NCBI GenBank assembly: GCA_964502925.1
Contig: CAZCYH010000017.1
Location: forward strand, 1,755 to 65,754
From: an uncultured Leptospira sp.
Lineage (GTDB): Bacteria; Spirochaetota; UBA4802; JAGODF01
Direction: 5' to 3'
DNA: 64,000 bases
The notes under the pieces are model-generated. The model made no database searches. It was not told the origin of the DNA and saw nothing but the letters and a program-made list of their open reading frames with translations. A program made the translations under genes and the position numbers. Below, piece by piece: positions 1 to 34,921 of the stretch. Numbering within the stretch: the first letter of the stretch is position 1; each line of letters begins with the position of its first letter.

Positions 1-431
1 ATGCTCAAAGACGCCGAGAAGCGCACCGGCTGGTCGATGGTTGATTTAATTATAGCCGTGATGCGCTCTGCAATGCGGCATCACGCAAAGTATGAAAGAG
101 AGCATGGAAGAATTGCATACCAGAAGCGCCTGGATAACGAGGGCATGCCGATACCGAAAGTACGGGTAAAGGTGAAATTCCTTGAACGGGAATATGATTA
201 TTTTAATGATATGCGGAGGTTTTTCAGAAGGTCGATTTCGCATGTGATTGCGATTGCGGTGCTTGAATATTTACCCGAGCTTGTGGAGCGCATCGAAAGC
301 GGTGCCTATGACGATGAAGTGGATTCTTATCCCTACAAAAACTGTGCAATTTATGATAAATGTATAGAAGAAGCGACGGTGTTTCACATCTGGTGGGGAT
401 TACCCAGCGATCCGGCGCTATTAGCCGCAGA
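1..431 (+). repeat. Left arm of a large inverted repeat of at least 431 bp, identical at every position checked; partner is 26158..26588 on the opposite strand.
   Basis: Reverse complement of 26158..26588 matches 1..431. Identity breaks at nt 432, 12 nt before the stop codon (gag ttc gcc cgc taa versus gaa ttc gct cat taa). Confidence 0.7.
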
Positions 432-444
432 GTTCGCCCGCTAA
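1..444 (+). CDS. Hypothetical protein, 5'-truncated by the window edge (the full gene would start about 42 nt upstream). Copy A of an inverted gene duplicate; see copy B at 26145..26630.
   Basis: ORF reads to the window start. The 147-aa translation is identical to aa 15-160 of the 26145..26630 product except for the last residue. Nucleotide identity was confirmed by eye at three places (1-60, 181-240, 400-431). No recognisable family. Confidence 0.5.
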   Translation: MLKDAEKRTGWSMVDLIIAVMRSAMRHHAKYEREHGRIAYQKRLDNEGMPIPKVRVKVKFLEREYDYFNDMRRFFRRSISHVIAIAVLEYLPELVERIESGAYDDEVDSYPYKNCAIYDKCIEEATVFHIWWGLPSDPALLAAEFAR

Positions 445-1117
445 ATCAATTCAAAATATTCCAAAATCTACAACCGTCAGCTTCCGGCGAGGGACAGCTA
501 TGCTTTGGTTTATCGAACATCCGAATTCCTGCGAATTACTGTACCATACTGTCCTCTTCTATTATATATTATCATCGGGTTGTGTACTCACATCACGTAT
601 TTCATAAAATGCTTTACCTGAGAAAAAGTACCCTCCCTCCACTATATTTCGTTAGAAATTTTTACACTTGTGTATAATATTTATACACGTATCAAAATGT
701 GACATGTATAATTTTTACCCATAATGCGACTATCATGCGGTTTTCCATTTTTTATAATAAAAACCCTAAGGTAAATTATTACAAAAATGTTAAATGTTTC
801 TTTTAAACCCACATCCTCATCTCGCGGCATTATACCATACAGACGTGTAGCATGCAAATTAATTTCACAAATTGATCTTATTACAAAAAAATAAAATTAT
901 TCAGATGAAACACATTTTATGCAATTTAATATATATAAAATATATTGCCTGTAAATTATAATTACTTTAAAAAGAATGTCATTCCTTCAGCGCATACATC
1001 ATACATATAAACATGTTTTGAAAATTTCTACAAAATCATATTATTTTATTATTCATAAATTATTTTATGTTTCGAGATCACCGGCATACATAAATTTTTT
1101 TCGTTTTGCATCAATTC

Positions 1118-1133
1118 TGGCACGCTAATTGCA
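1118..1133 (+). promoter_or_regulatory. Sigma-54 (RpoN) type -24/-12 promoter: TGGCACG-N4-TTGCA.
   Basis: Sequence ctGGcacgctaatTGCat matches the consensus TGGCACG-N4-TTGCW exactly, with GG at 1119-1120 and GC at 1131-1132. It lies about 37 nt upstream of the ATG at 1170. Confidence 0.5.
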
Positions 1134-1169
1134 TATATAATTATCATCAAGGCTGTTTCGAGGTTAATT

Positions 1170-2009
1170 ATGATGAGAAAAGAACATACGAGCAGTCAAA
1201 CCGAATTGCAAAATTATTTTTCTTCGATTAATAAAATTGCACTCCTTACCCAGGAAGAAGAAGTTACCCTTGCTAAATCCAAATGCCTGGGCGATGAAAA
1301 AGCGAAGGAAAAGCTCATAAATTCCAATTTGCGCCTTGTGGTGAAGATCGCGAAAAACTACACGTCTCTCGAACCTTCCATTATTGATTTAGTTCAGGAA
1401 GGAAATCTCGGTCTCATTCGAGCCGCAGAAAAATTCGATCCGAAGATGGGATGCAGATTCTCAACCTACGCATCGTACTGGATCAAGCACTACATCACCC
1501 GCTTCATCGCAAAGCGCAGCAGAGCGATACGGGTTCCTATACGCAAAGGCGACCTTCACAAAAAAATTAATAAAGCACGAGAACTTCTTTTAAGCGAAAG
1601 CGGCCGCGAGCCTACTTCGATTGAACTGGCGGAGCTTTTAGGTGTTCATGAAAAAGAGGTGCGCGACATTCAGGAAGTATTCCAGCCGACGGTATCCCTT
1701 GAACATCCGCTCAACGATACCGACTTCAGCCTTCTTGAAGTGGTGGAAGACGTAACGTCCCTTTCTCCCGACTATCACGTAACCCGCAACGAGTTGAAGG
1801 AGGAGCTTGAAAGCGCAATGAATTCACTTCTTGAAAACGAAAAGAAAATTCTCAGAATGCGCTTCGGCTTCGATGACGACAGACCCGTCACCCTCAAGGA
1901 ATTGGGCGATGAGTTCGGCGTTTCGGCCGAGACAGTCCGCCAGATAGAATCGCGCGCGATGAATAAAATTAAGAAGAAATTTTCCCATTTACAGGATTTT
2001 TTATACTGA
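1170..2009 (+). CDS. RNA polymerase sigma factor, sigma-70 family (RpoS/RpoD-like, with regions 2, 3 and 4), 279 aa.
   Basis: Region 2 motifs are present (NLRLVVKIAKNY, YASYWIKHYITR). Region 4.2 reads LKELGDEFGVSAETVRQIESRAMNKIKK. A GAGGT ribosome-binding site precedes the ATG. Confidence 0.85.
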   Translation: MMRKEHTSSQTELQNYFSSINKIALLTQEEEVTLAKSKCLGDEKAKEKLINSNLRLVVKIAKNYTSLEPSIIDLVQEGNLGLIRAAEKFDPKMGCRFSTYASYWIKHYITRFIAKRSRAIRVPIRKGDLHKKINKARELLLSESGREPTSIELAELLGVHEKEVRDIQEVFQPTVSLEHPLNDTDFSLLEVVEDVTSLSPDYHVTRNELKEELESAMNSLLENEKKILRMRFGFDDDRPVTLKELGDEFGVSAETVRQIESRAMNKIKKKFSHLQDFLY

Positions 2010-2124: not shown

Positions 2125-3156
2125 ATGTCAAAAAATCACATAATTTCAATCATATCATCATTAAAGAAGGATCTTGCCAACATTCCCGAACTTCTTTCTG
2201 AAATGAAGCATGAGATGAAAATGATGACGGCATGCATGCCGTGCGATTTTCTTCCTTTTGAAATACTTCGAGCATGCGGCATCCATCCTTTTATTATGCC
2301 ACCCGGATTTGACCATCACCCTGAGTTTCACACCATACTCGATGCGATAATCACACCTAAAAGCTGCTGCTTTGCGCTTTCAAACAGAAATAACATAATT
2401 CCAGCAATAATCATAGATGCAATTCCCGCCACGTATGGCGACAACTCGCTTCATGAATGGAAAACGCTGCTCGGGAATATTCTTTCGACACTAAAAGGAA
2501 AGGATTTTGAGATACCTGTAGCGGAACTACGTTCTTCGGCCGGGAAGTATGCCACGCTTCGCCGCCTGGTGCGCGGCATTACGCTTTTGCGCCGCGAAAA
2601 ACCGGATGCCCTTTCCAATGCTGATCTTGAAGTGATTTTTTCGTCGGCTCTTGCGTTTCCTCCGGGAATGATCGCTCCGAAACTTTCATCGCTTCTGGAT
2701 GCGCTGAACGATTATTCTTCGCGTTTTGAAGGCACGCCAATTCCCGCGCTCATCTACGGACGCTGCCGCAACAGGGGTGTGTCACCGGACGATCTGGAGA
2801 AAGAGGGTTTTCTTATTGTCGAGGACGATATATGCGGCGGCAGAAGGAGCTTCGATCTTTCCTACAACACGGGGGCGGATTATCTCTACGATGAAATCAT
2901 CAACGCGTTTTCTTTCAGGCCATTCTGCCCCTGCCTGCGAAGCGCCACAAGCCGGTTTGAGCTTCTCTATATGCTGGCGGGCTCTTACGGTATTGAAACT
3001 GTCATATTCATCGACGACAACTCCTGTCCAACGCGCGCATCGCATATTGACTTCATGCGCAGGCGCCTCATGCGCTTCGGCATCGATCACCTGGTACTTC
3101 ATCCGGAAAATCCGATTGATGAAGCGCGAAGATATGTGGATCTTGCCTCACGTTGA
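2125..3156 (+). CDS. 2-hydroxyacyl-CoA dehydratase / benzoyl-CoA reductase subunit family protein (HGD-D-like). Start chosen at MSKNHII.
   Basis: N-terminal ACMPCDFLPFEILRACGIHP and C-terminal GIETVIFIDDNSCPTRAS-HIDF resemble the HGD-D family signature (x-G-x-x-C-x-x-P-E-I-x-x-A-x-G and a CD/CP motif). GGGAG sits 7 nt upstream of ATG 2125. No activator ATPase lies nearby. Confidence 0.4.
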   Translation: MSKNHIISIISSLKKDLANIPELLSEMKHEMKMMTACMPCDFLPFEILRACGIHPFIMPPGFDHHPEFHTILDAIITPKSCCFALSNRNNIIPAIIIDAIPATYGDNSLHEWKTLLGNILSTLKGKDFEIPVAELRSSAGKYATLRRLVRGITLLRREKPDALSNADLEVIFSSALAFPPGMIAPKLSSLLDALNDYSSRFEGTPIPALIYGRCRNRGVSPDDLEKEGFLIVEDDICGGRRSFDLSYNTGADYLYDEIINAFSFRPFCPCLRSATSRFELLYMLAGSYGIETVIFIDDNSCPTRASHIDFMRRRLMRFGIDHLVLHPENPIDEARRYVDLASR

Positions 3157-10126: not shown

Positions 10127-10242
10127 TAATCACCGCATATGCATGTGCTTTGCCAACAGGAGAAAAGAACACAACCGAAAATGACTTTATCCATGCTACA
10201 AAAGTAGCCTTTTTTCATCAATAATTAATTTTTTATGAATGC

Positions 10243-12918
10243 TTGATAATTATGAAATTCATGACAAAAAAATTTTTTTCTTGCATTTTCCTCACAATGC
10301 TTTATAATAAAAAACTTCAGCAGGTCATTATCTGTATTGTATATATCACCCGATGTGCGTGCGTTTCCAGAATCATCCGGGTACCACTAACCCAATTTGG
10401 CGTATGTATGCTTGATAATATATTTTCAAAAAGTAAACTCACCGACGAGGTGATCGAAATTCTTCATCATATTCCCGACATGGTGATAATTGCAGGTGCG
10501 GATAAAAAAATTCTTTTTGCCAACCAGACGGCGGAACGGATGTTAGGCTCCGAAAATAATTCACTCAAAGGCAAAGACATAACCAGCGTTCTCAGCGATA
10601 AAATTTCTCAATTCCCTGAATGCCTACGGAAAGCAATCGGAACTTATAGCAATTTAGACCCCATCGATACATCACTTTTAACTTCCGACGGCCCCACTCC
10701 CGTCAATCTTTCCATAAAAAAAATTTCCGGCAAAAACAGGAAAGCTACTTTAGCCATCATCGCTCGCGATACCAGCAAAACAAAAATACTCAGCGAAGAA
10801 AAAAAGGAACGAATGCTTGCCGTAAGCGCTCTCATCGAAAGCGAGGAACGGTACCGACAGATAGTGCACACCATCGAGGACGGCTTTTTCGAAGTTGACC
10901 TTGGGGGCAATTTGACTTTTTTCAACGAAGCTCTACAGAAAATTATTGGGCATAGCGCTGAGCGTTTGCGGGGCATGAATTACCGTGAATTCATGGACGA
11001 TAAAAACGCAAAAGAGGTTTATAAATCATTTAACCGGGTCTTCCGCACTGGAATTTCCGAAAAAGCTTTCGACTGGGAGATAATTTCGGCCGACGGCAGC
11101 CGTCACATTGTCGAAACATCAATATCGCTCATTTGTCAGCACGGTGGAAAACCGAGCGGCTTTCGCGGCATCGTCCGCGACATCACCGAGCGCAAGGAAG
11201 TCGAACGAAAACTCAGGCAAAGCGAAGAGCGCCTCAAACAGAGCGAAGAGCGGTACCGATCGCTCGCGGAAAACAGTTCCGACATCATCAGCGAAGTGGA
11301 TATGGAAGCGCAATATACCTATATCAGTTCAAACGTGAAGGAAATTTTAGGTTACACCCCCAGTGAGGTTGTCGGACATCGGTTTACCGATTTCATTCAT
11401 CCCGAAGATTTGAGCAAAGCTGAACGAGTCTGGCGCGAACGCGTGCAGGATTTCACCCTTCGTTTCAGAAGCAAATCCGGTCAGTGGCGCTGGCTCGACT
11501 GCGCTTCGCGGACTTTCAGCCTCTCCGACGGCAGGGAGCGCGTCGTTACCATCTCCCGCGATGTAACCGAACGTAAGATCGAAGAAGAAAAATACCGCGA
11601 AAATGAAATGCGCCTTCGCCTTCAGCAGATGGCTCTTGCAGAACTTGCAAAGAATGAATCGCTCTACCGTGGCGACGTGCGCGCCGCGTTTGTGACTATC
11701 AACATGGTCGCCTGCCACAATCTAAATGCTACTGCTAGCAGTATCTGGCTCTTTGAAAATGAAGTAGAATTTTTTGCCCGATGCTACGATCGTTTTAATT
11801 CAAAGGATAACACGCATTCAGAAGGCGAAATAATTGATTTCTCTAAACATACAGATATTCTCAAAGTTCTGGACGCGCTCCGAATCATCGAGCTTCGCAA
11901 TGATACCGAAGAGAATTCGCATCTAAACTTCCTTCACGATTATTCCCGCATCCAAACTGTCACCATGATCGTGCTCATTTCGTTTCGCCTCGGAGGAAAT
12001 ACCATCGGGATCATCGCAATTGAAGAATGGGAAACCAGCCGCACGTGGTCGAGCGAAGAAAAGCAATTCGCGGCTTCGCTTGCGGATTTTGCTTCGCTTG
12101 CAATGGAAACACACAATCGTAAAATAGCCGAAGAATCGCTCCGGTTCAGCGAAGAGATGCTCCGCAAGCGCAACGAAATGATCGAAAAAGACCTTAAAAA
12201 CGCGCAGATCATACAAAAGGCGCTTTTGCCGAATTCCATACCGCCCGCGGAAAATATTCGCATGGAATATAAAAATTTCTCCGTGGACGCGGTGGGAGGC
12301 GATTATTTTTCGTTCACACCTTTGAAAGAAGGAGGTCTTGGAGTATTCATCGGAGATGTTTCAGGGCATGGGGTATCCGCCGCACTTTTCCTTTCGCTTT
12401 TGAAAGCAACTGCAGACCGGGCTTGTCGCCAATTCGGACAGAGCCCCAGGGAATTCATTGAATATCTCAATCGGGAACTCATCGAAACCATGCCGCACTA
12501 TTTTGTGACCGCCATATACGGATACTTCTCCAAACCAAATGCTGATGGTTCCATCAAGTTCACCTTTTCTAAAGGCGGACACCCCAATCCGATCATACAG
12601 TGGAAATCTACCGGAAAAATTGAAATGCTGCGCTGCCGGGGAACAATTTTGGGAAAATTTGATCATGCAAAATACGAAGAAATATCCCTCATACTCCAGC
12701 CGGGGGATCGTATTTTCCTCTACACCGACGGCCTACCGGAAATGACCAACCCGGAAAAACAGATGTTAGGGTTCAACGAGCTTGTTAATCTCATCGAAGA
12801 GTGCGTAAAAGACGACCTTAAAGAAACGCTCCACGCTATACTCCTCGAAGCAGACTCCTTCCGGAAAGGCGCGGATATCGAAGACGATATCGTACTCATC
12901 GGGCTCGAAGTGTTGTGA
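10243..12918 (+). CDS. Multi-PAS/GAF sensor fused to a PP2C-type (SpoIIE/RsbU-like) serine phosphatase. The true start may be the internal ATG at 10408 (MLDNIFSK).
   Basis: Repeated PAS S-box segments and a GAF-like segment. The C-terminus has PP2C motifs (GGDYFSF...FIGDVSGHGVSAALF...LYTDGLPE). Confidence 0.8.
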   Translation: MIIMKFMTKKFFSCIFLTMLYNKKLQQVIICIVYITRCACVSRIIRVPLTQFGVCMLDNIFSKSKLTDEVIEILHHIPDMVIIAGADKKILFANQTAERMLGSENNSLKGKDITSVLSDKISQFPECLRKAIGTYSNLDPIDTSLLTSDGPTPVNLSIKKISGKNRKATLAIIARDTSKTKILSEEKKERMLAVSALIESEERYRQIVHTIEDGFFEVDLGGNLTFFNEALQKIIGHSAERLRGMNYREFMDDKNAKEVYKSFNRVFRTGISEKAFDWEIISADGSRHIVETSISLICQHGGKPSGFRGIVRDITERKEVERKLRQSEERLKQSEERYRSLAENSSDIISEVDMEAQYTYISSNVKEILGYTPSEVVGHRFTDFIHPEDLSKAERVWRERVQDFTLRFRSKSGQWRWLDCASRTFSLSDGRERVVTISRDVTERKIEEEKYRENEMRLRLQQMALAELAKNESLYRGDVRAAFVTINMVACHNLNATASSIWLFENEVEFFARCYDRFNSKDNTHSEGEIIDFSKHTDILKVLDALRIIELRNDTEENSHLNFLHDYSRIQTVTMIVLISFRLGGNTIGIIAIEEWETSRTWSSEEKQFAASLADFASLAMETHNRKIAEESLRFSEEMLRKRNEMIEKDLKNAQIIQKALLPNSIPPAENIRMEYKNFSVDAVGGDYFSFTPLKEGGLGVFIGDVSGHGVSAALFLSLLKATADRACRQFGQSPREFIEYLNRELIETMPHYFVTAIYGYFSKPNADGSIKFTFSKGGHPNPIIQWKSTGKIEMLRCRGTILGKFDHAKYEEISLILQPGDRIFLYTDGLPEMTNPEKQMLGFNELVNLIEECVKDDLKETLHAILLEADSFRKGADIEDDIVLIGLEVL

Positions 12919-13428: not shown

Positions 13429-16400
13429 TCACTCATTTTTTTTCGCCATAATCATCGCAATCGCCGATATCACGTCATCGCGTGAATACGGCTTCAAAAT
13501 GATGCCATCAAAGCCGTACTCCCCGGGGCGAGCCAACACCGGATCGCCATAATATCCGCTTGAAACGATGAGCACAGGGCGAGGCGTTATCTTGCCGAAT
13601 TCAATCGCCGCATCTTTTCCACCCATGCCACCGGGTACCGTGAGATCCATAATGACAATATCAAAAGGTTTTCCTTCCTGCAAAGAAAGTTTGAATTTTT
13701 CCAGCGCCTCCCGACCGTCGCGCGCCGTATCGCATTCATGGCCAAACGATTCGAGTATCGATGAAAGCGAATCGAGGATATACTCCTCATCATCCATAAG
13801 AAGCACACGGTATTTCGCTTCAAAAGTTTTTGCATCGTTCTTTTGATTCTCTTTTTTTTCTGCTGCTTCATACGAGGGAAGATAGACAGTAAACGTACTT
13901 CCGCTTCCGTGACGGGACTGCACGTGGATATATCCCTCGTGTTTTTTTATGATGGAATAGCAGGTGGCAAGCCCCAGGCCGTAGCCGCGATCCTTTGTAG
14001 TGAAATAAGGATCGAAAATTTTGCCGATATTTTCCTCTGAAATCCCCTCGCCCTCATCAATAAAATCAAGCCTCACATAGCGACCTTCCCTGAGTGGCAG
14101 ACCTTCCGGGGCGCGTGAATTTGAAATCATTACTTTGATTTTTCCCCCTGAGGGCATTGCCTGAATTGCGTTGATAAGCAAATTGTTGAAAACCTGGGAA
14201 ATCTGCCCGGAATCGAGCACAAGAGACCAGAGTTGCGCCTCGGGGGTTACATTGACTACCTCACAAAGGCAATTCGAACCCGTCAGCGTAAGTTCAATGC
14301 TTTCCCGAAGCAATGCCATAATCGACACCGATTTCTTAACGGGGTTGCCACCCCGTGCGAAGGTGAGAAGCTGCCGCGTCAGATTGACGGCCCTTTCCCC
14401 CGCTTTTTCAATCATCGAAATCATCCGATTGAACTTTTCATCAATTGTTTTTTTTGTCTTCAACATTGATGCGTTCGCAAGAATCGCGGTGAGAAGATTA
14501 TTGAAGTCGTGCGCGATACCTCCCGCAAGGACTCCGAGCGATTCGAGGCGGTTTATTTTGCTGATTTCCTGTTCGAGCTTTTGACGCGCCGTGATGTCGC
14601 GAAGCGCTAAAACCGCCCCGGTGATGTTTCCCGATTTATCCCGCAATGGCGCTCCGCTCAATTCCACCACAATCGATTCCCTTCCTGGCACTCCGAGCAG
14701 CATATTGCTGTTTTCGAGATGTCCCTCGGCGACGATCTCGTGCACCGGATCCACCTTCTCTGTGCTTGCATGCATCATTACGAATGAAAAAATATCCGAA
14801 AAGCGTTTGCCTTCGGCATTTTCAAGCAAGCATCCGGTGAGCCTTTCCGCGCTCGGATTCATGTACGTTATCGCACCAGAAATATCCGTGGTCACCACAG
14901 AATCTGCGATTGACCGAAGAGTGATGGAAAGCTTTTCGCGTTCTTTCGCCAGGCTGTCATTCGCTTCCAGAAGCTCATTTTGCGTGTTGACCAATTCCTC
15001 ATTGAGCGCTTCAAGTTCCTCATATTGGGAGTGTATTTCCTCGAATTGCTGGAGGATGGTCTTTTCCGCTTTCTTGAGCGTTGAAATATTTGTAACTATT
15101 AAAAGCGTTCCAGTCTTCCCTTCCGTGCTGATAGCCACGGCCGAAATGAATACGTCCACATCTTTCCCCTCTTTGCTTTTGATGCGTGCCTCGTATTGCT
15201 CCTGCGCGGCGTTTCCTTCAATCCTTGAGAGATAATTGGAAAACACCGGATTGGTCCCGTCGGGTTGTGGAGGAAATATCTGCTTAAAAATATCAACGGT
15301 ATATAACTCGCTTTCGGAATAGCCGGTCATCTCGATGAAAGACCTGTTTGCGTATCTGACTGTTTCATCTACAATCAGTAAGATTCCTTCGCGCGCGTTC
15401 TCGACAAGAGCGCGATATTTTTCCTCGGATTCCTTCAACGCGGAAAGGGCTTTTTCCCGTTCCTGCCTGAGGCGCTTGAGCTGATCGGCAACCCCAAACG
15501 ACAGAAGAAGCGCCATAATTGAAGCCCCCGCCTGATATCCCCACATGGATATTGCCCCGCTGGTAGTGAGGCCAAACGCGCGCAATGCTGTCAGCGCAGC
15601 ACCAACAATAAAAGCCGACCACGCGGACATGAGAAAGATTGCCGCACGATCTTTTTTGTACATCAGTATTGAACCGCTTATAATAAAAAACAACACGGTG
15701 ACGCCTGCAAATGCTGTCGAGACCTGAGTTGCAATGTGATACTCCCCAAAAAATGGAAACACAAGCAGCAATATATTTAGATACATGAAATATCGCGCGA
15801 ATGCATCGAACCGCGGAATCTCCGATTCCATCCGCAAAAAAGACCGGGAAAACGCCAGCGCAAAGACAACAGTGAGAAACAGAAAAAACGGGTTTGAAAT
15901 ATTCGACCATCGGATGGCGTTCGACCAGAGAAATTGAAATGAAATGCCGTTCTGTGCCATTGAAAAAAGGGTGACCGCCGCAATAAAGAGCGCAAGAAAG
16001 AGATAGCTTCTTTCACGGTACGACAGGAAAATGAAGAAATTATAGATAAAAAGCGCAAACATAATTCCATAATGCAAAAACAAAAGTGCCAGTTCGAATT
16101 GTACGCGCCAACTGAAATCTTCCGGTTCATGCGCTTCTAAGGGAACCGTGATGGAACCTTCGGATTTTACCCGAAGATAGATTGTCGATTCCCCCGGCGG
16201 CTGAATCACGGGAAAGGCGATGCTGCGGCACTTAATTTCCCTCGAAGAAAAGGGGACGCTGTCGCCTCCCTGATGGCGGATAAATCCGCGCGGTCCGGGT
16301 AGAAACACTTCCACCAGGTCGATGATGGGATAATTATACTCTAATATCCACTTCCTGCTCTGCGGAAAGGGATTGTGAACTTTCAGTCTGAACCAGAATG

Positions 16401-16695
16401 TCGAATGAGAATACCCGAAGCTCGGATATTCTTTGTTTACCGGCAAAAATTGCAGACCAATATCTTCACGTAGAATATCTTTCAATTCAAGGCGCGCGCT
16501 TTCGTCAATCAAGTATTCAAGATGAACTCCGAGAGGCTTTCCGCTAAAACCATCATTCAGGACAAACGGCTCTGGAAGAGCATGCGCCAGAAGCGGAAAG
16601 AAAACCGAAATCGAAATAACAAACACTTTCAGGCACAATCGCATGAGAAACGCGCCGTTGAATATTGCCACTTTTCTTTTTTTGTGCTCCGACAT
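13429..16695 (-). CDS. Hybrid sensor histidine kinase: 7TMR-DISM extracellular domain, 7TM region, PAS domains, HisKA, HATPase and a C-terminal receiver.
   Basis: Periplasmic N-domain and about seven TM helices. H-box GIAHDFNNLLTAI, ATPase N/G boxes and a receiver (LLMDDEE...DIVIMDLTVPGGMGG) are all present. The start may be the internal Met of the signal peptide (MRLCLKVF). Confidence 0.85.
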   Translation of the reverse strand: MSEHKKRKVAIFNGAFLMRLCLKVFVISISVFFPLLAHALPEPFVLNDGFSGKPLGVHLEYLIDESARLELKDILREDIGLQFLPVNKEYPSFGYSHSTFWFRLKVHNPFPQSRKWILEYNYPIIDLVEVFLPGPRGFIRHQGGDSVPFSSREIKCRSIAFPVIQPPGESTIYLRVKSEGSITVPLEAHEPEDFSWRVQFELALLFLHYGIMFALFIYNFFIFLSYRERSYLFLALFIAAVTLFSMAQNGISFQFLWSNAIRWSNISNPFFLFLTVVFALAFSRSFLRMESEIPRFDAFARYFMYLNILLLVFPFFGEYHIATQVSTAFAGVTVLFFIISGSILMYKKDRAAIFLMSAWSAFIVGAALTALRAFGLTTSGAISMWGYQAGASIMALLLSFGVADQLKRLRQEREKALSALKESEEKYRALVENAREGILLIVDETVRYANRSFIEMTGYSESELYTVDIFKQIFPPQPDGTNPVFSNYLSRIEGNAAQEQYEARIKSKEGKDVDVFISAVAISTEGKTGTLLIVTNISTLKKAEKTILQQFEEIHSQYEELEALNEELVNTQNELLEANDSLAKEREKLSITLRSIADSVVTTDISGAITYMNPSAERLTGCLLENAEGKRFSDIFSFVMMHASTEKVDPVHEIVAEGHLENSNMLLGVPGRESIVVELSGAPLRDKSGNITGAVLALRDITARQKLEQEISKINRLESLGVLAGGIAHDFNNLLTAILANASMLKTKKTIDEKFNRMISMIEKAGERAVNLTRQLLTFARGGNPVKKSVSIMALLRESIELTLTGSNCLCEVVNVTPEAQLWSLVLDSGQISQVFNNLLINAIQAMPSGGKIKVMISNSRAPEGLPLREGRYVRLDFIDEGEGISEENIGKIFDPYFTTKDRGYGLGLATCYSIIKKHEGYIHVQSRHGSGSTFTVYLPSYEAAEKKENQKNDAKTFEAKYRVLLMDDEEYILDSLSSILESFGHECDTARDGREALEKFKLSLQEGKPFDIVIMDLTVPGGMGGKDAAIEFGKITPRPVLIVSSGYYGDPVLARPGEYGFDGIILKPYSRDDVISAIAMIMAKKNE

Positions 16696-21389: not shown

Positions 21390-24300
21390 TCATTTTCCCC
21401 CTTTGGTTTTTCGGTATTCTTGTGGCGAAATCCCCATTATTTTTACGAACGCACGATTGAAGGTAGAGAGGCTTTCAAACCCAACCGCATAGGCAATATC
21501 AATTATCTTTTCTTTGCTTTCAGCCAGCTTCTTTGCGGCATCTTCCACCCGCAGCCTGTTGATATAATCACCAATTTTTTCACCGGTAATCGATTTAAAT
21601 GCCTTGCCGAGATGATCGGGATTGATATTCAATGAAGCGGCAAGCCCCTCGCGAGAGACATCAGAAGTATAATTTTTCTTGATGTATTCAATCGCTTTAT
21701 GCACCTTCTGTTCGGTTGCGATCGAAAAAAGTTCCTTGGGGAATTGTTCCTTCAATTCAACCGGCTGAACACTGCCGAGTGCTTTTGCTACAATCACAAG
21801 GAATGAACCAATAGCACGTATGTCTTTTTTGTCGGCATTATCATCTTCGAAGGTGGTTTCAACCAGACACATGCCTAAGGTTTTCCTTTCTCTCAAAAGC
21901 GGAAATGCTGTGTAATGTGACAATGAGATTGGATCGGCTTCATCACGATGAGCAGGTTTTTCTTCTCTCTTAATTTCATGATACAATTCCTCGAGTCGTG
22001 CGCGTTCGATTCCTTTCGACGACAGGATATCAAAGCTTTTCTCTCCTTCGTATATCACAAAAACACAGCCCGCACGCGCACCTACAAAATCCATCACAGC
22101 CACAAGCGCGGTTTCAGCAATATCTCTCGCTTCTTTCTTTTCAAGAATTTGGCGCCCGATTTGCGCAAGCAAGGCATGCCGCTCCTTACTGAAATATCGC
22201 TCCAAGGGCGTTTTCTCATCCTTAACAGAAATGCCCAGAAGCCGTGAGAGCCGGGACACATATTGTTCCGAACCGATTTCCACACTCAACCGATACGCTT
22301 CCTCGAATACAGCATGCGCGGTCGAAGCTTCCCCCTTTTTGAGATGATAGTTCCCTATTTCCACCATCGTCCGAAGCTGTTCAAACGGCCGGTTGTGTCT
22401 GCACGCGTGCTCTTTCGCCTTTTGAAAAAGCTCATACGCGATGCGATGTTTTCCCTCACGTTCCACTGCGCACGCATGTACGCGTAGCGCAGCCCCATGA
22501 TGCGTCGGCCACGCGCGAGTTTTCGCAACTGCAACTTCGCACGCGCGAAGCATTTTTTTCATCAGAGATGCCCTATCACGCTTTGAAACTTGTCCCCCTC
22601 TGGCGTCATACTCATCGATATACGCCTGCCCAAGATTCACATAGACTGGAACGATGTACTGCTTTAAAAACGAGTGCTTTTCATGCGGCCCTCTGGCTTC
22701 TTCAAGATATTCAATCGCGCGTTCGAAATTCCCCGCTTCGAGTTCATTGCATCCAAGTTCATTGAGCGCGGAACAGAAATTGAACCAAATACCCCGGCTT
22801 TTGCTCAAATCGGCTGCGCGCTTCACGAATTCCACTGCTCTGTTCGCATTTCCCCTCTCCCTGTGATATTGCGAATAATAGATGAGCGCCGCGCCTTCGG
22901 AATATTCATCACCAAGACGGCTGACGAGTTCATAATACTCATCATTTATTTGAATAGCTCGCGCATATTCTCCCCGATAGTAATGGCAATGTTCAAGTCC
23001 ATTCAGCGTCATTGCATATTCTTTGATATCGCCAAGCTCGTGAAATATCCTTTTCGCTTCTTCGAAATACTCAATCGCTGTTTCGTATTCAGCCCGCCAC
23101 TCGTAATAGTACCCCATAAACTCGAGCGACTTTGCAAGTCCCCAGCGATTGCCCAAGTTCTCGTTCATTTGCCGCGCTTTCCGAAGATACTTCAAAGCAA
23201 TGTCAAAAAGGGGAATGGAAATATAGAGTGCACCAACTCCATAATAGCTCAACGCCAGTTCGGAAGAAGCGCCGATGTACCGCTCGGAAATATTGAGCGC
23301 GTGAATATTCGACCACACGAGCTTTAATGGGTCGTTGAGAGCATAGCTCATCCCCAGCGGCTCATAAAATTCGATAATCTGGCGATAATGATCCGCATCA
23401 CTTCCTTGTTTTTTACGGACAAAGAAAAAAGGAAAAGCAAGATGAAGAAGATGTTTCATCGCTTCTTTTGCGAGGGCAAAAAATACCTGATTTTTCGTGC
23501 GCGGCACATAATCACCCAAAAGCGCAAGACCTTCCGCCGCATGCGTTTCGCAGCTTTTCCAGTCGGCTTTGCGATAGTGGGCCTGACACAATACGAGATG
23601 CGCACGAGCTCGTCGATCAATTTGTTTAATCACTGGCATGAGAGAATCCAGGATAGATATTGCTTCATCGTATTCGCCAATAATCACATCAACCGCAGCA
23701 AGCTCAAGCTTGCATTCGATCATCTGCTCATCATCCTTCCTTCCAAGCTCTCCAAGCATGGCAATCGTTTTATGAAAATAGCGGGCTGCATCGCGGTAGG
23801 CATAACGATCTTTCGCAAGCACCGCCGCGGGATACAGATACCGAACCGCACTGTTAAACTCACCTCCTTCTGAGTAATGATGCGCCATATCGAATATTGC
23901 TTTTTCTTTTTCAATCTCCTCCGCCTCGAGGGCATGAGCAATTTTCAGATGAAGCGCCTTTTTGTTCGTCGGATCTATGCGTTCAAGAAATATTTCCATG
24001 ATACGATCGTGCGAGAACTGAATCACATCGCTTTCCGGGACATCCTCTTTGAAAATGCGCAATTTCCGTGCAGCTTCAATTGCCGAAACACAAGCATTCT
24101 CTGGTATATTGAGCACTCTGGCTATGAAACGATAATCGATTGCTTTTCCGATAACTGCTGCGCACGCAATCACAGCTTCTTCGGTTTCATCGAGCAGCCT
24201 GGCGCTGTGAGCAAGTAAATCCAGGAGCGAATCGGGAATACTCTGTGCGTCTATGTGCTGTGTGTATTTCCATATTTTTCCATCAAACACAGCCATGCCG

Positions 24301-25985
24301 CCTTCGATGATATTTTTTAACACTGTTTTGGCGTACAGCGGATTTCCCTCACTTTTCTGATAGATAATATCCGCAATAGCCGCCACTGCATCCTCACTTT
24401 CTTCCATCATTTCCGCGACAAGCCCTCTGACTGCCAATGCATCAAGCGCATTCAGCCGTATGGAGATGCTCGCCGCATATGGCGCATTTGCCGGCGTAAG
24501 CTTTGCGTGTGATTCATCGCCCTCACGCGATGTCAGAAGAACCATCACGCGCGCTCGCTCGGTGATACTAATAAGTTCCGAGATCACACTGACACTCGCG
24601 GCGTCGATCCACTGCACATCGTCGATGAAAATAACAGCCGCAGAACCGAGGAGTTCAATTGAGCGCAAAAATCGCGCCAGGAGTATCCCGGCATTACGCG
24701 CGCTTTCTTCCATTTCTTCGTTTTTTAAAATAGCTGTATCCTCGAATACCTGCACAATGCCGGGTTGAATTTTCGCGATTAACTTCCGACAGGATGTCAT
24801 TTCTTTGGCAAAAAGCTCCCGGATTTTTGCCTTTGTATGTTCATCGGATGTCGCGTACAATTTTAACAATGAAGCGAAAAGGCCGTTCAATGCTTCGTAG
24901 GGAGTATTTGCTGATTCGCGATGGCATTTCGCTTCGAGAAAAACTCCGCCACGTTTTTCGACTTCAGTTTTAAACTCTTCGATGAGGCGGCTTTTTCCGC
25001 ACCCCGCTCGTCCTTTCACCTCAACAGATATTCCGCTTCCTTGCCGAACATCAGCAAATATTTTAATAAGGCGTTCCATTTCCGCTTTCCGCCCTACCAG
25101 CGATGCACGATAATTAAGCTGACGAACGCCGTCTTTCTGCCCAATGGCGAAACATCTCTTCCCCTCCAGAAACTGATCGAGATCGTACACCAGCGCCTCG
25201 GCGCGCCCATATCGATGTGAGGGCTCTTTTTTCAACAATCGCAAAACAATTGCTTCAAGCACTTCGGGAATGTCGGGATATATTTCCCGAACTGGTACGA
25301 CTTTTTCTGAAAAGCCCGTTGCGCCAAAATCGCTTTCTGAAAAAGGAAATTTTCCCGTCAGAAGCACGTACAGAAGAACTCCCAGAGAATATAAATCGCT
25401 CCTCTCATCAACTGGCCTCCTGATAAGTCCTCGCTGCTCTGGAGGCAGGAAGTCCAGCAATTCATGAAGCTGTTCAGCGGCATAATCATCAGGGTAATCG
25501 AGGATATGTGCGAAACCAAATCCCCACAGGAGTACTCTCTCGGCATCTATGAACACAAATTGTGGAGAAATCGCGCGGTGAATAACCCCTTTGAGGTGAG
25601 CATGAGCAAGTGCTTCGGCACTACATTTCACGATAGATACTTTCTTTTCAAGGGAGATGCTGAAAAACCCGTCTTTTGTAATATATTCCGCCAGTGATTT
25701 TCCCGCAAACGCCTCGGTGATGACATACGCCCGATCGAAAAAATCACCCGCCTCGATGATGCGAATGACTGAAGTATGATGAACTTCTTTCATTTTTGCA
25801 GCAATGCTTTTAAAGCGAATCACATCGCCGGGGCGGCGCGACATCACCGGTGCAGCAATCACAAATGCGTTCACATCGTTCCCGGCAATGATATCATGCC
25901 CAAAGTACCGAGTGAAGATAGGGTTTTCTGAAATTATTTCTTTCAGCAGATATTTTCCGTTAATAGTTTTTCCCAAGAATTCCAT
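21390..25985 (-). CDS. Large multidomain regulator: N-terminal Ser/Thr-kinase-like pseudokinase, AAA/STAND ATPase, TPR repeats, GAF-like domain and a C-terminal AraC-type HTH.
   Basis: Kinase fold with HRD changed to HRA (VIHRAISPQ) and DFG changed to GFG. Walker A reads GRAGCGKS. TPR-like repeats are long and helical. The C-terminus is AraC-like (IAYAVGFESLSTFNRAFVKIMGISPQEYRK). Confidence 0.8.
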   Translation of the reverse strand: MEFLGKTINGKYLLKEIISENPIFTRYFGHDIIAGNDVNAFVIAAPVMSRRPGDVIRFKSIAAKMKEVHHTSVIRIIEAGDFFDRAYVITEAFAGKSLAEYITKDGFFSISLEKKVSIVKCSAEALAHAHLKGVIHRAISPQFVFIDAERVLLWGFGFAHILDYPDDYAAEQLHELLDFLPPEQRGLIRRPVDERSDLYSLGVLLYVLLTGKFPFSESDFGATGFSEKVVPVREIYPDIPEVLEAIVLRLLKKEPSHRYGRAEALVYDLDQFLEGKRCFAIGQKDGVRQLNYRASLVGRKAEMERLIKIFADVRQGSGISVEVKGRAGCGKSRLIEEFKTEVEKRGGVFLEAKCHRESANTPYEALNGLFASLLKLYATSDEHTKAKIRELFAKEMTSCRKLIAKIQPGIVQVFEDTAILKNEEMEESARNAGILLARFLRSIELLGSAAVIFIDDVQWIDAASVSVISELISITERARVMVLLTSREGDESHAKLTPANAPYAASISIRLNALDALAVRGLVAEMMEESEDAVAAIADIIYQKSEGNPLYAKTVLKNIIEGGMAVFDGKIWKYTQHIDAQSIPDSLLDLLAHSARLLDETEEAVIACAAVIGKAIDYRFIARVLNIPENACVSAIEAARKLRIFKEDVPESDVIQFSHDRIMEIFLERIDPTNKKALHLKIAHALEAEEIEKEKAIFDMAHHYSEGGEFNSAVRYLYPAAVLAKDRYAYRDAARYFHKTIAMLGELGRKDDEQMIECKLELAAVDVIIGEYDEAISILDSLMPVIKQIDRRARAHLVLCQAHYRKADWKSCETHAAEGLALLGDYVPRTKNQVFFALAKEAMKHLLHLAFPFFFVRKKQGSDADHYRQIIEFYEPLGMSYALNDPLKLVWSNIHALNISERYIGASSELALSYYGVGALYISIPLFDIALKYLRKARQMNENLGNRWGLAKSLEFMGYYYEWRAEYETAIEYFEEAKRIFHELGDIKEYAMTLNGLEHCHYYRGEYARAIQINDEYYELVSRLGDEYSEGAALIYYSQYHRERGNANRAVEFVKRAADLSKSRGIWFNFCSALNELGCNELEAGNFERAIEYLEEARGPHEKHSFLKQYIVPVYVNLGQAYIDEYDARGGQVSKRDRASLMKKMLRACEVAVAKTRAWPTHHGAALRVHACAVEREGKHRIAYELFQKAKEHACRHNRPFEQLRTMVEIGNYHLKKGEASTAHAVFEEAYRLSVEIGSEQYVSRLSRLLGISVKDEKTPLERYFSKERHALLAQIGRQILEKKEARDIAETALVAVMDFVGARAGCVFVIYEGEKSFDILSSKGIERARLEELYHEIKREEKPAHRDEADPISLSHYTAFPLLRERKTLGMCLVETTFEDDNADKKDIRAIGSFLVIVAKALGSVQPVELKEQFPKELFSIATEQKVHKAIEYIKKNYTSDVSREGLAASLNINPDHLGKAFKSITGEKIGDYINRLRVEDAAKKLAESKEKIIDIAYAVGFESLSTFNRAFVKIMGISPQEYRKTKGGK

Positions 25986-32456: not shown

Positions 32457-33056
32457 GTGATGCCGCGTCCTTATCGCATTCAAGAACCGGAATTAACCTA
32501 TCATATTGTTTCCCAATGCATCGAATGGCGCGATATGATTGCTGATGAGGAAATAAAAGAACTCTTTCTGGAAGTACTCCGGCGAAGCAGGCAAAAATAC
32601 GAATATCGCCTCATTGCATATTGCATCATGCCTAATCACATTCATCTCGTTATTCACACCATGCGCGAAGGCGCACAAATATCAAAAATTGTACAGTATA
32701 TTAAAGCGCGATTTGCGGAAATGTATAATAAACTCCTGAAGAGAACTGGACCTTTCTGGAATGGCCGATATAAAGATAGCATAATTCAATTCGCAAGGGA
32801 TGCATGTCATTATTTGCTGTGGCTTATCTGGTACCTGGCTTTTAATCCTGTGCGGAAAAGATTATGCGCAAATCCATTGAAGTATCGTTATAGCAGTATC
32901 CGGGCATATCTTGAGGAAGGTGCTGATGTGGGAGTACCAATTGAACATCATGACTTTTTTTTGAAACTTGGAAATACCTTCAAAGAGCGAGTGAAAAATT
33001 TTCTTCGGTACGAAGAAATGTATCGGAAGCGGCATGCGATTTTTGACTGGGTATAG
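32457..33056 (+). CDS. REP-associated tyrosine transposase (RAYT, IS200-like Y1/HuH transposase).
   Basis: HuH motif MPNHIHLVI. The catalytic Tyr region FWNGRYKDSII matches the RAYT/IS200 W-x-x-R-Y pattern. It is flanked by inverted REP-like palindromes and has a GAGGAGG ribosome-binding site. Confidence 0.75.
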   Translation: MMPRPYRIQEPELTYHIVSQCIEWRDMIADEEIKELFLEVLRRSRQKYEYRLIAYCIMPNHIHLVIHTMREGAQISKIVQYIKARFAEMYNKLLKRTGPFWNGRYKDSIIQFARDACHYLLWLIWYLAFNPVRKRLCANPLKYRYSSIRAYLEEGADVGVPIEHHDFFLKLGNTFKERVKNFLRYEEMYRKRHAIFDWV

Positions 33057-33436: not shown

Positions 33437-34921
33437 ATGAGTGTACCGATTACCTACATTGACTTCTTGATGATTCTCGCCCTAACTTTGCTCGTATCCA
33501 TCGCAATCTCGGTGTATATCCATAACAGATTCAGCAACGTAAACCGGCTTTTTTCGCTTTTTATTCTCAATGTAACCGCCTGGCTCTTCCTGTCAATGAT
33601 CCATTTCTTGTTCAGACAGCACCTCGCCGTACTTCTGTCGTTTCAGACGGCCGTAGGCTCGTTTATGGGAATTACATTTTTCTATTTTGCCCTGGTTATC
33701 GTCGATGAACAGCATGTGAGACGACGCTGGGAAAATGCCCTCGCTATCGTACCCGCGGCAATTGCAGGATGGTATATCATTACCATCATCCACCCTGACC
33801 TCCTGGCGGATTTCAACGACCGTGTGCGCTATGAAGGGATTAAGCTTCATCGACCGGGAGACATGGCCTATTGGGCATACACGACGTGGCTTTTTTCAGC
33901 CTTCATTATGGGGTATGGCGTCCTCATATCCGGATTGCGCAGAAAAGGCGATACACAGGCGCGGAAACGCATTCGCAATGTCCTTTGGGCAAGCATACTT
34001 GGGCAGCTTACCACCTTGGGCATCAGTAACTTATCGTCAATTCTCGGTCTTGGCCAGCCTGGCTGGATCGCCTTGATGCCCATTCTGGCTTCTCTTTGCT
34101 GGATTGGTGTTTCAATCATCAGGGATAAGATATGGACGGTGGAATATCTTCTCGAAGTAATTCGGCAAAGCGAGGAAAAACTCGGCGAGCGCAACCGCAT
34201 TATCGAAGCTGACCTTGAGCTGGCTCGTCTGATTCAGAAAAAACTCCTCCCCGATAAGGTCCCACAGCTACCCGGTCTCGGAGTACACGCGGTGTATCTC
34301 CCGGTAGATAAAGTGGGTGGTGATTACTATGATTTCATCGTGGAACGTAACGTCCTGGGAGTTTTGCTTGCGGACGTAAGCGGCCATGGCATCGCAAGCG
34401 CATTTCTCTCTTCCATAATTAAAATGGGATTTAATTATCATGCAGGAAGCAACGGCCCCACGCTTTTTAAGACCCTGGACCGTCTCGTGGCCGAGAAAGG
34501 CGCTAATTCCATGTTCGCAACAGCAGTGTTCTGCAGAATTGATACCGACACCATGAGGCTTACAAGCTGCCGCGCCGGTCACTGCCCGCCACTTGTTATC
34601 AGGAGCGGTTCAGGAGAAATAGTGTCCATTGAAACGCCCGGCAGGGCATTGGGGATGAATCTGGGAGAGCCCCGTTACCAAATTGGTGAAATTGAGCTCT
34701 CTCGGGGTGACAGGATTTTTCTCTATACCGATGGTGTCACCGAAACAATAAACTCTGACAGGGCGCTTTTCGGCGAAGAACGGCTAAAGAATGCATTGCG
34801 TGAAGGGATGGGGTACGCGCTGGAAGAATTCTGCGAAAAACTTCTCGCTAAGCTAAAGGAATTTTCCGGGGACAATCCCCAAGTCGACGACATCACCATT
34901 ATAGCGGTGGAAGTAAAATAG
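33437..34921 (+). CDS. Membrane-anchored PP2C-type (SpoIIE/RsbU-like) serine phosphatase with a multi-TM sensor domain.
   Basis: About 7 TM helices at the N-terminus. C-terminal PP2C motifs GGDYYDF...LLADVSGHGIASAFL...LYTDGVTE. Confidence 0.8.
   Translation: MSVPITYIDFLMILALTLLVSIAISVYIHNRFSNVNRLFSLFILNVTAWLFLSMIHFLFRQHLAVLLSFQTAVGSFMGITFFYFALVIVDEQHVRRRWENALAIVPAAIAGWYIITIIHPDLLADFNDRVRYEGIKLHRPGDMAYWAYTTWLFSAFIMGYGVLISGLRRKGDTQARKRIRNVLWASILGQLTTLGISNLSSILGLGQPGWIALMPILASLCWIGVSIIRDKIWTVEYLLEVIRQSEEKLGERNRIIEADLELARLIQKKLLPDKVPQLPGLGVHAVYLPVDKVGGDYYDFIVERNVLGVLLADVSGHGIASAFLSSIIKMGFNYHAGSNGPTLFKTLDRLVAEKGANSMFATAVFCRIDTDTMRLTSCRAGHCPPLVIRSGSGEIVSIETPGRALGMNLGEPRYQIGEIELSRGDRIFLYTDGVTETINSDRALFGEERLKNALREGMGYALEEFCEKLLAKLKEFSGDNPQVDDITIIAVEVK

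Follow-up and report, generated by a model that had tools for sequence, protein, structure and literature searches.

The window analysed here is a stretch of 64,000 nucleotides from contig CAZCYH010000017.1 of an uncultured Leptospira sp. Near its left end it carries a gene for a sigma-70-family sigma factor, preceded by a consensus sigma-54 (-24/-12) element. The question raised by this locus is whether the element is a working promoter that places one sigma factor under the control of another, as in the RpoN-RpoS cascade of Borrelia, and how such a promoter would be activated. The conservation of the element across related loci indicates, with high confidence, that it is a functional promoter maintained by selection. 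We put the probability of the whole explanation, a sigma gene driven by sigma-54 within a two-step cascade, at roughly 0.85. The parts of the proposed transcription unit were as follows:

1118-1133, + strand: sigma-54 (-24/-12) promoter TGGCACGCTAATTGCA, an exact consensus match, with the GG at 1119-1120 and the GC at 1131-1132
1144-1169, + strand: predicted 5' untranslated region, its start placed by standard sigma-54 geometry, with a GAGG ribosome-binding site at 1160-1163
1170-2009, + strand: predicted group-2-like sigma-70-family sigma factor gene, 279 aa (278 aa from the ATG at 1173)
2037-2068, + strand: intrinsic terminator with a 9-bp stem, a 5-nt loop and a T run (stem-loop at 2037-2059, then the T run)

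The -24/-12 element and its conservation

A match of the form TGGCACG-N4-TTGCA had been pointed out at 1118-1133, and its sequence, strand and coordinates were exactly as described. The element TGGCACGCTAATTGCA showed no mismatch to the consensus TGGCACGNNNNTTGCW and was the sole exact match on either strand of the window; a search for TGGCACGNNNNTTGCW allowing one mismatch returned no additional site. The GG and GC doublets lie 10 bp apart (GG-N10-GC) within a TGGCAC-N5-TTGCW pattern, and 36 nt separate the end of the element (1133) from the ATG at 1170, on the correct strand. Taken alone, a lone consensus match is only modestly significant. Dinucleotide shuffles of the window gave an expectation of 0.05 exact matches, with at least one match in 5 of 100 shuffles. 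The site scored 19.1 bits on a position-weight matrix, a value nearly matched (18.9) in one of 30 mononucleotide shuffles. It is because of the comparative data that the element stands far beyond chance.

A protein scan of species-representative genomes identified 32 orthologous loci (L001-L032) with 59-97% protein identity. All were uncultured metagenome-assembled genomes (MAGs) labelled Spirochaetota, Leptospirales or Leptospiraceae, and 31 had readable upstream sequence. An exact-sequence look-up of the window protein gave no record, and the nearest relative was the MAG CAKZSV01 (L001; 97% identity). The GG-N10-GC doublets were present in every one of the 31 readable loci. In 30 of these they preceded the matched start by 41-57 nt; in the outlier, L029, the distance was 91 nt, since its match begins at residue 13. 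Over 32 sites, with the consensus TTGGCACGAATATTGCTTATTAAT, the T, GG, A(+3) and TGC positions were invariant (2.0 bits), whereas the flanking positions carried 0.1-0.6 bits. Invariant doublets against such flanks show purifying selection on the doublets.

Exact-protein look-up led to 11 further loci, whose homologues are more distant (43-54% identity, 277-288 aa). These form a second clade, with the names Spirochaetia, Spirochaetaceae and Spirochaetales. The element was present in ten of the 11 loci (L051, L052/53, L054/55 and L056-L062) as TGGCAY-N5-TTGCW, 35-44 nt before the ATG and in three gene neighbourhoods; in L054 it became visible once an over-long start call had been corrected. Altogether, 41 of 42 loci, with protein identities of 43-97%, carried the element, at an offset of 35-58 nt in the 40 loci beyond the window. 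The strict motif occurred at the expected place in 38 of the 42 loci and just six times elsewhere in 2 x 413 kb. The layout originally predicted, a sigma-54 promoter ahead of a sigma-70-family gene as in the Borrelia RpoN-RpoS system, was thus strongly supported: the doublets, their spacing and the distance to the start codon are kept in 41 of 42 loci, while the flanks are unalignable. The pattern of conservation fits a sigma-54 and not a sigma-70 promoter, because the positions at which a sigma-70 -35 hexamer would have to sit, relative to the AT-rich bases after the -12 element, are unconserved.

In the proposed mechanism, RNA polymerase carrying sigma-54 (RpoN) would transcribe the sigma gene from 1118-1133 in vivo. 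The transcript would start near 1144, about 12 nt past the C of the GC, carry a leader of about 26 nt and end at the 2037-2068 terminator; as this terminator closes the unit, the gene is monocistronic. A sigma-54 holoenzyme in the closed complex cannot open DNA without an ATP-hydrolysing AAA+ activator, so that expression would depend on an enhancer-binding protein encoded elsewhere, and the genome would be expected to carry both rpoN and the activator gene.

Upstream palindromes, the activator and alternative promoters

Ahead of the promoter lies a non-coding region (445-1117) of 673 bp with 29% G+C, compared with 47% for the whole window. It had been described as a 700-bp AT-rich leader. The region is indeed AT-rich and non-coding, but as it is situated upstream of the sigma-54 promoter, it cannot be the leader of the sigma-54 transcript. 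Three features were distinguished in it, none of them assigned a strand:

671-687, no strand: distal 17-bp palindrome TGTATAATATTTATACA, one half of a pair forming a candidate enhancer, or upstream activator sequence; contains TGTGTATAAT
705-721, no strand: proximal 17-bp palindrome TGTATAATTTTTACCCA, overlapping TGTGACATGTATAAT, with 34 bp between its centre and that of the distal copy and 406 bp between its centre and the -24 GG downstream
722-1117, no strand: AT-rich spacer from the palindromes to the promoter (25% G+C over 725-1117)

The palindromes belong to a conserved family with the consensus TGTGTAA-N3-TTACACA, in which G2, A6, T12 and C16 were invariant among the 60 listed sites. Of the 32 loci, 30 had a pair ahead of the sigma gene, and L007 and L028 had one copy each. 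The centre-to-centre distance was 31-34 bp in all 30 pairs, corresponding to about three helical turns, and the centre of the proximal palindrome lay 184-440 bp upstream of the GG across loci. The family was specific to these regions, with 63 matches in 22 kb of upstream sequence versus nine in 372 kb elsewhere (118-fold enrichment). In the Spirochaetia homologues, a related 18-bp dyad (TGTATGAAAAAGTATACA in L060, TGTATAAAAAAACATACA in L062 and TGTCTGAAAAAGTGCACA in L056) was identified about 95-110 bp upstream of the GG, which is a classical enhancer distance. The original prediction had proposed a search for upstream activator sequences 80-150 bp from the promoter; in the window, this interval held small inverted repeats that were unconserved even in L001 and L002.

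No element besides the palindromes is conserved along with this activator-requiring type of promoter, so an enhancer is the favoured reading, and we consider it somewhat better than an even bet that the pair serves as the enhancer for a sigma-54 activator. The activator would most likely dock at 671-687 and 705-721, three helical turns apart, and looping of the AT-rich spacer would bring it into contact with the promoter. The group-2-like sigma product would then steer RNA polymerase towards a second set of promoters, its putative regulon, giving a two-step cascade of the Borrelia type.

A comparable arrangement is found in the NtrC enhancer at glnAp2, which has a pair of 17-bp dyads (TGCACCA-N3-TGGTGCA) spaced at about 32 bp. 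The palindromes are like it in their 7-N3-7 form, in occurring as two copies about three helical turns apart (31-34 bp in the window family) and in lying upstream of a sigma-54 promoter. They are unlike it in their half-site (TGTGTAA) and in their distance from the promoter, 184-440 bp versus about 110-140 bp. The likeness may be taken as a lead rather than a test.

Several observations weigh against the explanation given so far. A six-frame search of the window and 59 loci by regular expression for GAFTGA, ESELFG, the Walker A motif of activators and the RpoN box revealed no rpoN and no activator gene, either in the window or across 571 kb of related loci. Pfam analysis of about 40 open reading frames (ORFs) of the window gave no Sigma54 domains, and PF00158 had no match in the window or the loci; the earlier remark that no enhancer-binding protein gene is seen in the window was confirmed by both searches. 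Position-weight-matrix and pattern scans of the window revealed no other convincing sigma-54 promoter. One homologue, L050, is the only one without the element. The palindromes of the window, at 406-440 bp from the promoter, lie beyond the range of most described enhancers. In the L020-L026 subgroup, a third copy of the palindrome precedes the rho start codon by about 110 nt, with no -24/-12 element nearby, hinting that the palindrome-binding factor also acts at a promoter that is not of the sigma-54 type. Finally, the Borrelia activator Rrp2 works without an enhancer, and its DNA-binding co-factor is the Fur-family protein BosR (PMC1976401).

The third palindrome upstream of rho and the enhancer-independence of Rrp2, together with the binding of BosR near rpoS, would also suit palindromes that are operators of a separate accessory regulator, such as a BosR-like Fur-family protein or a repressor. 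The activator would then act from solution and the sigma-54 promoter would still be functional. The large and variable distance to the promoter (184-440 bp) points the same way, as does the resemblance of the AT-rich dyad to many repressor operators. We regard such an accessory regulator as unlikely, although a serious contender, given that the sites are nearly confined to one intergenic region (118-fold), that they are paired at three helical turns, that the Spirochaetia dyad sits at the classical enhancer distance and that nothing besides the palindromes is conserved alongside an activator-requiring promoter.

A less probable alternative concerns a second promoter. The original prediction had read two strings in the AT-rich region as extended -10 elements and, on that ground, allowed for dual promoter control. 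The strings are present at slightly different positions (TGTGTATAAT at 669-678, not about 664, and TGTGACATGTATAAT at 698-712), and they proved to be the left halves of the conserved 17-bp palindromes; the TG abuts TATAAT, so neither is a canonical TGnTATAAT. Under dual control, a sigma-70 promoter in this region would add a transcript with a long leader to the sigma-54 transcript. The perfect TATAAT at 673-678 and 707-712 would favour it, as would the good TTGACR-17-TATATT that precedes the GG by about 197 bp in L020-L023 and L025, and Borrelia rpoS is said to have a long transcript as well, reportedly regulated by the small RNA DsrA. Nevertheless, + strand -35/-10 pairs scoring at least 10/12 were absent from the window, including the part between the palindromes and the gene, and from most orthologous loci. 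A generic scan reached 9/12 at best on the + strand, where 5.5 +/- 2.2 chance matches are expected in such AT-rich DNA. The TATAAT strings are inner palindrome halves, the conserved G2, A6, T12 and C16 are not -10 positions, and no sigma-70 promoter stands at a fixed offset across the subgroups. Dual control is thus improbable for the window, and a sigma-70 promoter was rejected as a general explanation, a good one being seen in one subgroup only.

It is very improbable that the -24/-12 match is a chance string or a site of another kind, with the housekeeping sigma factor alone transcribing the gene: one match in 64 kb is not overwhelming (5/100 shuffles), a TATAAT lies at 1136-1141 just past the -12 element and no rpoN gene was seen in the window or related loci, but 41 of 42 loci, in three gene contexts, retain the doublets at their spacing amid unconserved flanks, no -35 hexamer lies at a usable distance from 1136-1141, with the matching positions unconserved, and the element is not palindromic, unlike most regulator sites.

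A reading of the palindromes as terminators was also discarded: the stems in the window are AT-only and lack a T run, and the sequence itself is conserved and not just the pairing (for example, A4 is opposite C14 in the second copy). An Rfam search of 300-2300 gave a sub-threshold chance match only, and no known RNA was found in the AT-rich region.

Some features of the upstream regions were confined to subgroups. In L012, L014, L015, L018, L019 and L027, the distal palindrome, located about 290-270 bp ahead of the GG, is enclosed in a longer GC-rich stem, CCACCTGTGTAAATATTATACATGGGTGG, with a T run behind it, and may double as the rpmE terminator. The extra copy upstream of rho reads CGTGTAAATTTTACACA in L020 (3757-3773), with equivalent positions in L021-L026. 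Two blocks of the window, 775-807 and 873-905, are conserved in the window, L001 and L002 only; they are about 100 bp apart and share TTATTACAAAAA.

The sigma factor and related regulatory systems

The gene has adjoining in-frame ATG codons at 1170 and 1173, of which the latter is favoured as the true start because nearly all orthologues are 278 aa long. Pfam analysis of the 279-aa protein matched Sigma70_r1_2, r2, r3 and r4; region 1.1 and the non-conserved insert are absent. The protein had been called RpoS-like. Its architecture (regions 1.2-4) agrees with that label, but its scores were below the cut-offs of both NCBIfam RpoS models (TIGR02394, 229.2 vs 378.7 bits; NF004207, 218.4 vs 394). 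The RpoD/SigA models of NCBIfam scored slightly above the RpoS models, yet also under their own cut-offs. Among solved structures, Bacillus SigA was the nearest (217 bits), with E. coli RpoS at 156 bits.

Lysine 173 of E. coli RpoS reads -13C and is a hallmark of RpoS. In region 3.0 of the window protein, PIRKGDL aligns with PVHMVET of SigA, which places an aspartate at the K173 position (numbering after PMC6719511). The unusual P-I-R-K-G-D thereby replaces P-V-H-M-V-E, and its R-K is common to both spirochaetal clades. The absence of the K173 hallmark is shared with Borrelia RpoS (BB0771), which is regarded as an independent, divergent duplicate of rpoD without K173 (PMC6719511). Judged by sequence, the protein is a group-2-like sigma factor. 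"RpoS-like" is fair as an architectural label only, and the protein is not an NCBIfam RpoS equivalog.

The window locus resembles the Rrp2-RpoN-RpoS system of Borrelia (rpoS/BB0771) in that a canonical -24/-12 element lies directly upstream of a group-2-like sigma gene of about 270-280 aa in a spirochaete. In B. burgdorferi, the sigma-54 promoter of rpoS, TTGGCACAGTTTTTGCATG as taken from primer sequences, is located downstream of flgI-flgJ (PMC1976401); the corresponding element of the window is CTGGCACGCTAATTGCATA. The primer text for the rpoS upstream region around -141 reads CAAAAAATACTCCCCCT (PMC1976401). The likeness to Borrelia extends to gene order in three Spirochaetia homologues (L056, L060 and L062), which have both the flgI-flgJ-sigma order and the sigma-54 promoter. 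By contrast, the order in the window clade is rho-rpmE-sigma and not flgI-flgJ, and in the window itself the sigma gene is preceded by an unrelated ORF. The window clade also has paired palindromes, whereas Borrelia BosR binds TAAATTAAAT direct repeats.

A chain of position, sequence and position suggests common descent with Borrelia rpoS. The window clade is tied by position to the rho-rpmE-DUF1385 members of the second clade, these are tied by sequence to the flgI-flgJ members (clade B of the neighbour-joining tree), and the flgI-flgJ members are tied by position to Borrelia rpoS. In that tree, a crude one of the two spirochaetal clades and RpoD-like proteins, the second clade was nearer to the RpoD-like proteins than to the window clade, and the two clades were not resolved as one. 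No named Borrelia protein came up in homologue searches, in a profile search of 1.84 billion representatives or in cluster look-ups of AT-rich candidates.

All Leptospira species have rpoN and one or two activators, and cultured Leptospira have been reported to be without RpoS or a group 2 sigma factor (PMC4758666). The EbpA/EbpB-sigma-54 system of Leptospira, the closest cultured lineage, is like the proposed one in having rpoN, one or two activators and canonical -24/-12 elements, in this case at amtB and lipoprotein genes. It differs in its targets: as cultured Leptospira are reported to be without a group 2 sigma factor, the sigma gene of the window falls outside the described Leptospira sigma-54 regulon.

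Transcription of a sigma gene by sigma-54 is known from further systems. In Pseudomonas syringae and Erwinia, HrpR/S (HrpS) acts with sigma-54 at a promoter that has a dedicated upstream activator site and drives the sigma-70-family gene hrpL, and HrpL in turn controls a regulon. Sigma-54-dependent transcription of another sigma-70-family sigma gene also occurs at the P6 promoter of E. coli rpoH and, through FlrA, at fliA of Vibrio. HrpL is an extracytoplasmic function (ECF, group 4) sigma factor of proteobacteria, unlike the spirochaetal sigma factor of the window with its regions 1.2-4. At rpoH, the sigma-54 promoter is one of several, whereas the window locus, whose product is group-2-like, has no other conserved promoter. 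The FlrA-fliA step belongs to a flagellar hierarchy and involves a group 3 sigma factor. The three systems are analogous in logic only.

The Lyme disease spirochaete has the RpoN-RpoS cascade as its central switch for virulence, and this arrangement is commonly viewed as peculiar to Borrelia. A cascade from sigma-54 to a sigma-70-family factor of the Borrelia type is already known; what is added here is its conservation in many uncultured spirochaete lineages, along with a conserved candidate enhancer. Free-living uncultured spirochaetes of more than 40 species-level lineages, belonging to at least two classes, showed this wiring, which thus appears to be widespread in spirochaetes. A limited literature search found no report of the cascade outside Borrelia, which is not proof of novelty. 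Some of the lineages share the flgI-flgJ neighbourhood with Borrelia rpoS and would provide an evolutionary context for the Borrelia pathway. The candidate enhancer, seemingly missing from Borrelia, could offer a handle on the activator and its signal in environmental spirochaetes.

A broader proposal, which we advance tentatively and at less than even odds, is that a group-2-like sigma factor wired to sigma-54 is an ancestral trait of the whole Spirochaetota, with a palindromic enhancer of TGT-N11/12-ACA dyads. On this view, the Rrp2-RpoN-RpoS system of Borrelia would descend from that arrangement in reduced form, independent of an enhancer, and the sigma gene would have been lost from cultured Leptospira. 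If this were true, the palindromes would mark the DNA site of an ancestral Rrp2-like activator.

Gene neighbourhoods and further observations

The genes rho and rpmE (ribosomal protein L31) were found upstream of the sigma gene in 28 of the 32 orthologous loci. Irrespective of the upstream gene, most of these loci have a non-coding gap of a few hundred bp ahead of the promoter. In the window and its closest relatives, rpmE is missing and the gap is retained. An ORF of 147 aa without a Pfam match, which begins at the first base of the window (1-444), takes the place of rpmE; it was seen in the window and L001 (4802-5335) only. In the second clade, the rho-rpmE-DUF1385-sigma order or other contexts were found in L051, L052/53, L054/55, L057, L058 and L059. 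The order was flgA-flgI-flgJ-(x)-sigma in L056, L060 and L062, and L061 had another context.

The L050 locus, which lacks the -24/-12 element, carries a sigma-70-like TTGTCA-17-TATATT between two inverted repeats of the TTAGGAnTCCTAA type (2900-3000), with a PadR-family gene upstream on the opposite strand. This looks like a regulatory replacement.

Two weak -24/-12-like strings were noted elsewhere in the window, and both may be due to chance. The first, TGGAAAGCATGTTGCA at 62767-62752 (- strand), is 34 nt before the GTG of an ORF (62733-62017) that encodes a nucleotidyltransferase/HepT-like protein of the toxin-antitoxin type. The second, TGGCAAAGCACATGCA at 10155 (- strand), precedes a cytidylate-kinase-like ORF.

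The window is dense in signalling genes. These include a PAS-PAS-PAS-SpoIIE phosphatase (10243-12918), a 7TMR-DISM hybrid histidine kinase with a receiver (13429-16695), a 1531-aa Ser/Thr kinase-AAA-TPR-AraC fusion (21390-25985) and a second SpoIIE phosphatase (33437-34921), none of which is a sigma-54 activator. An IS200-like Y1 transposase ORF (32457-33056) lies in low-GC surroundings (0.418 over 32-34 kb). A 753-aa fusion of an ATP-grasp/L-amino-acid-ligase domain and an FMN-dependent dehydrogenase domain is encoded at 36510-38771, and a stand-alone FMN_dh gene is present upstream of the sigma gene in L051.

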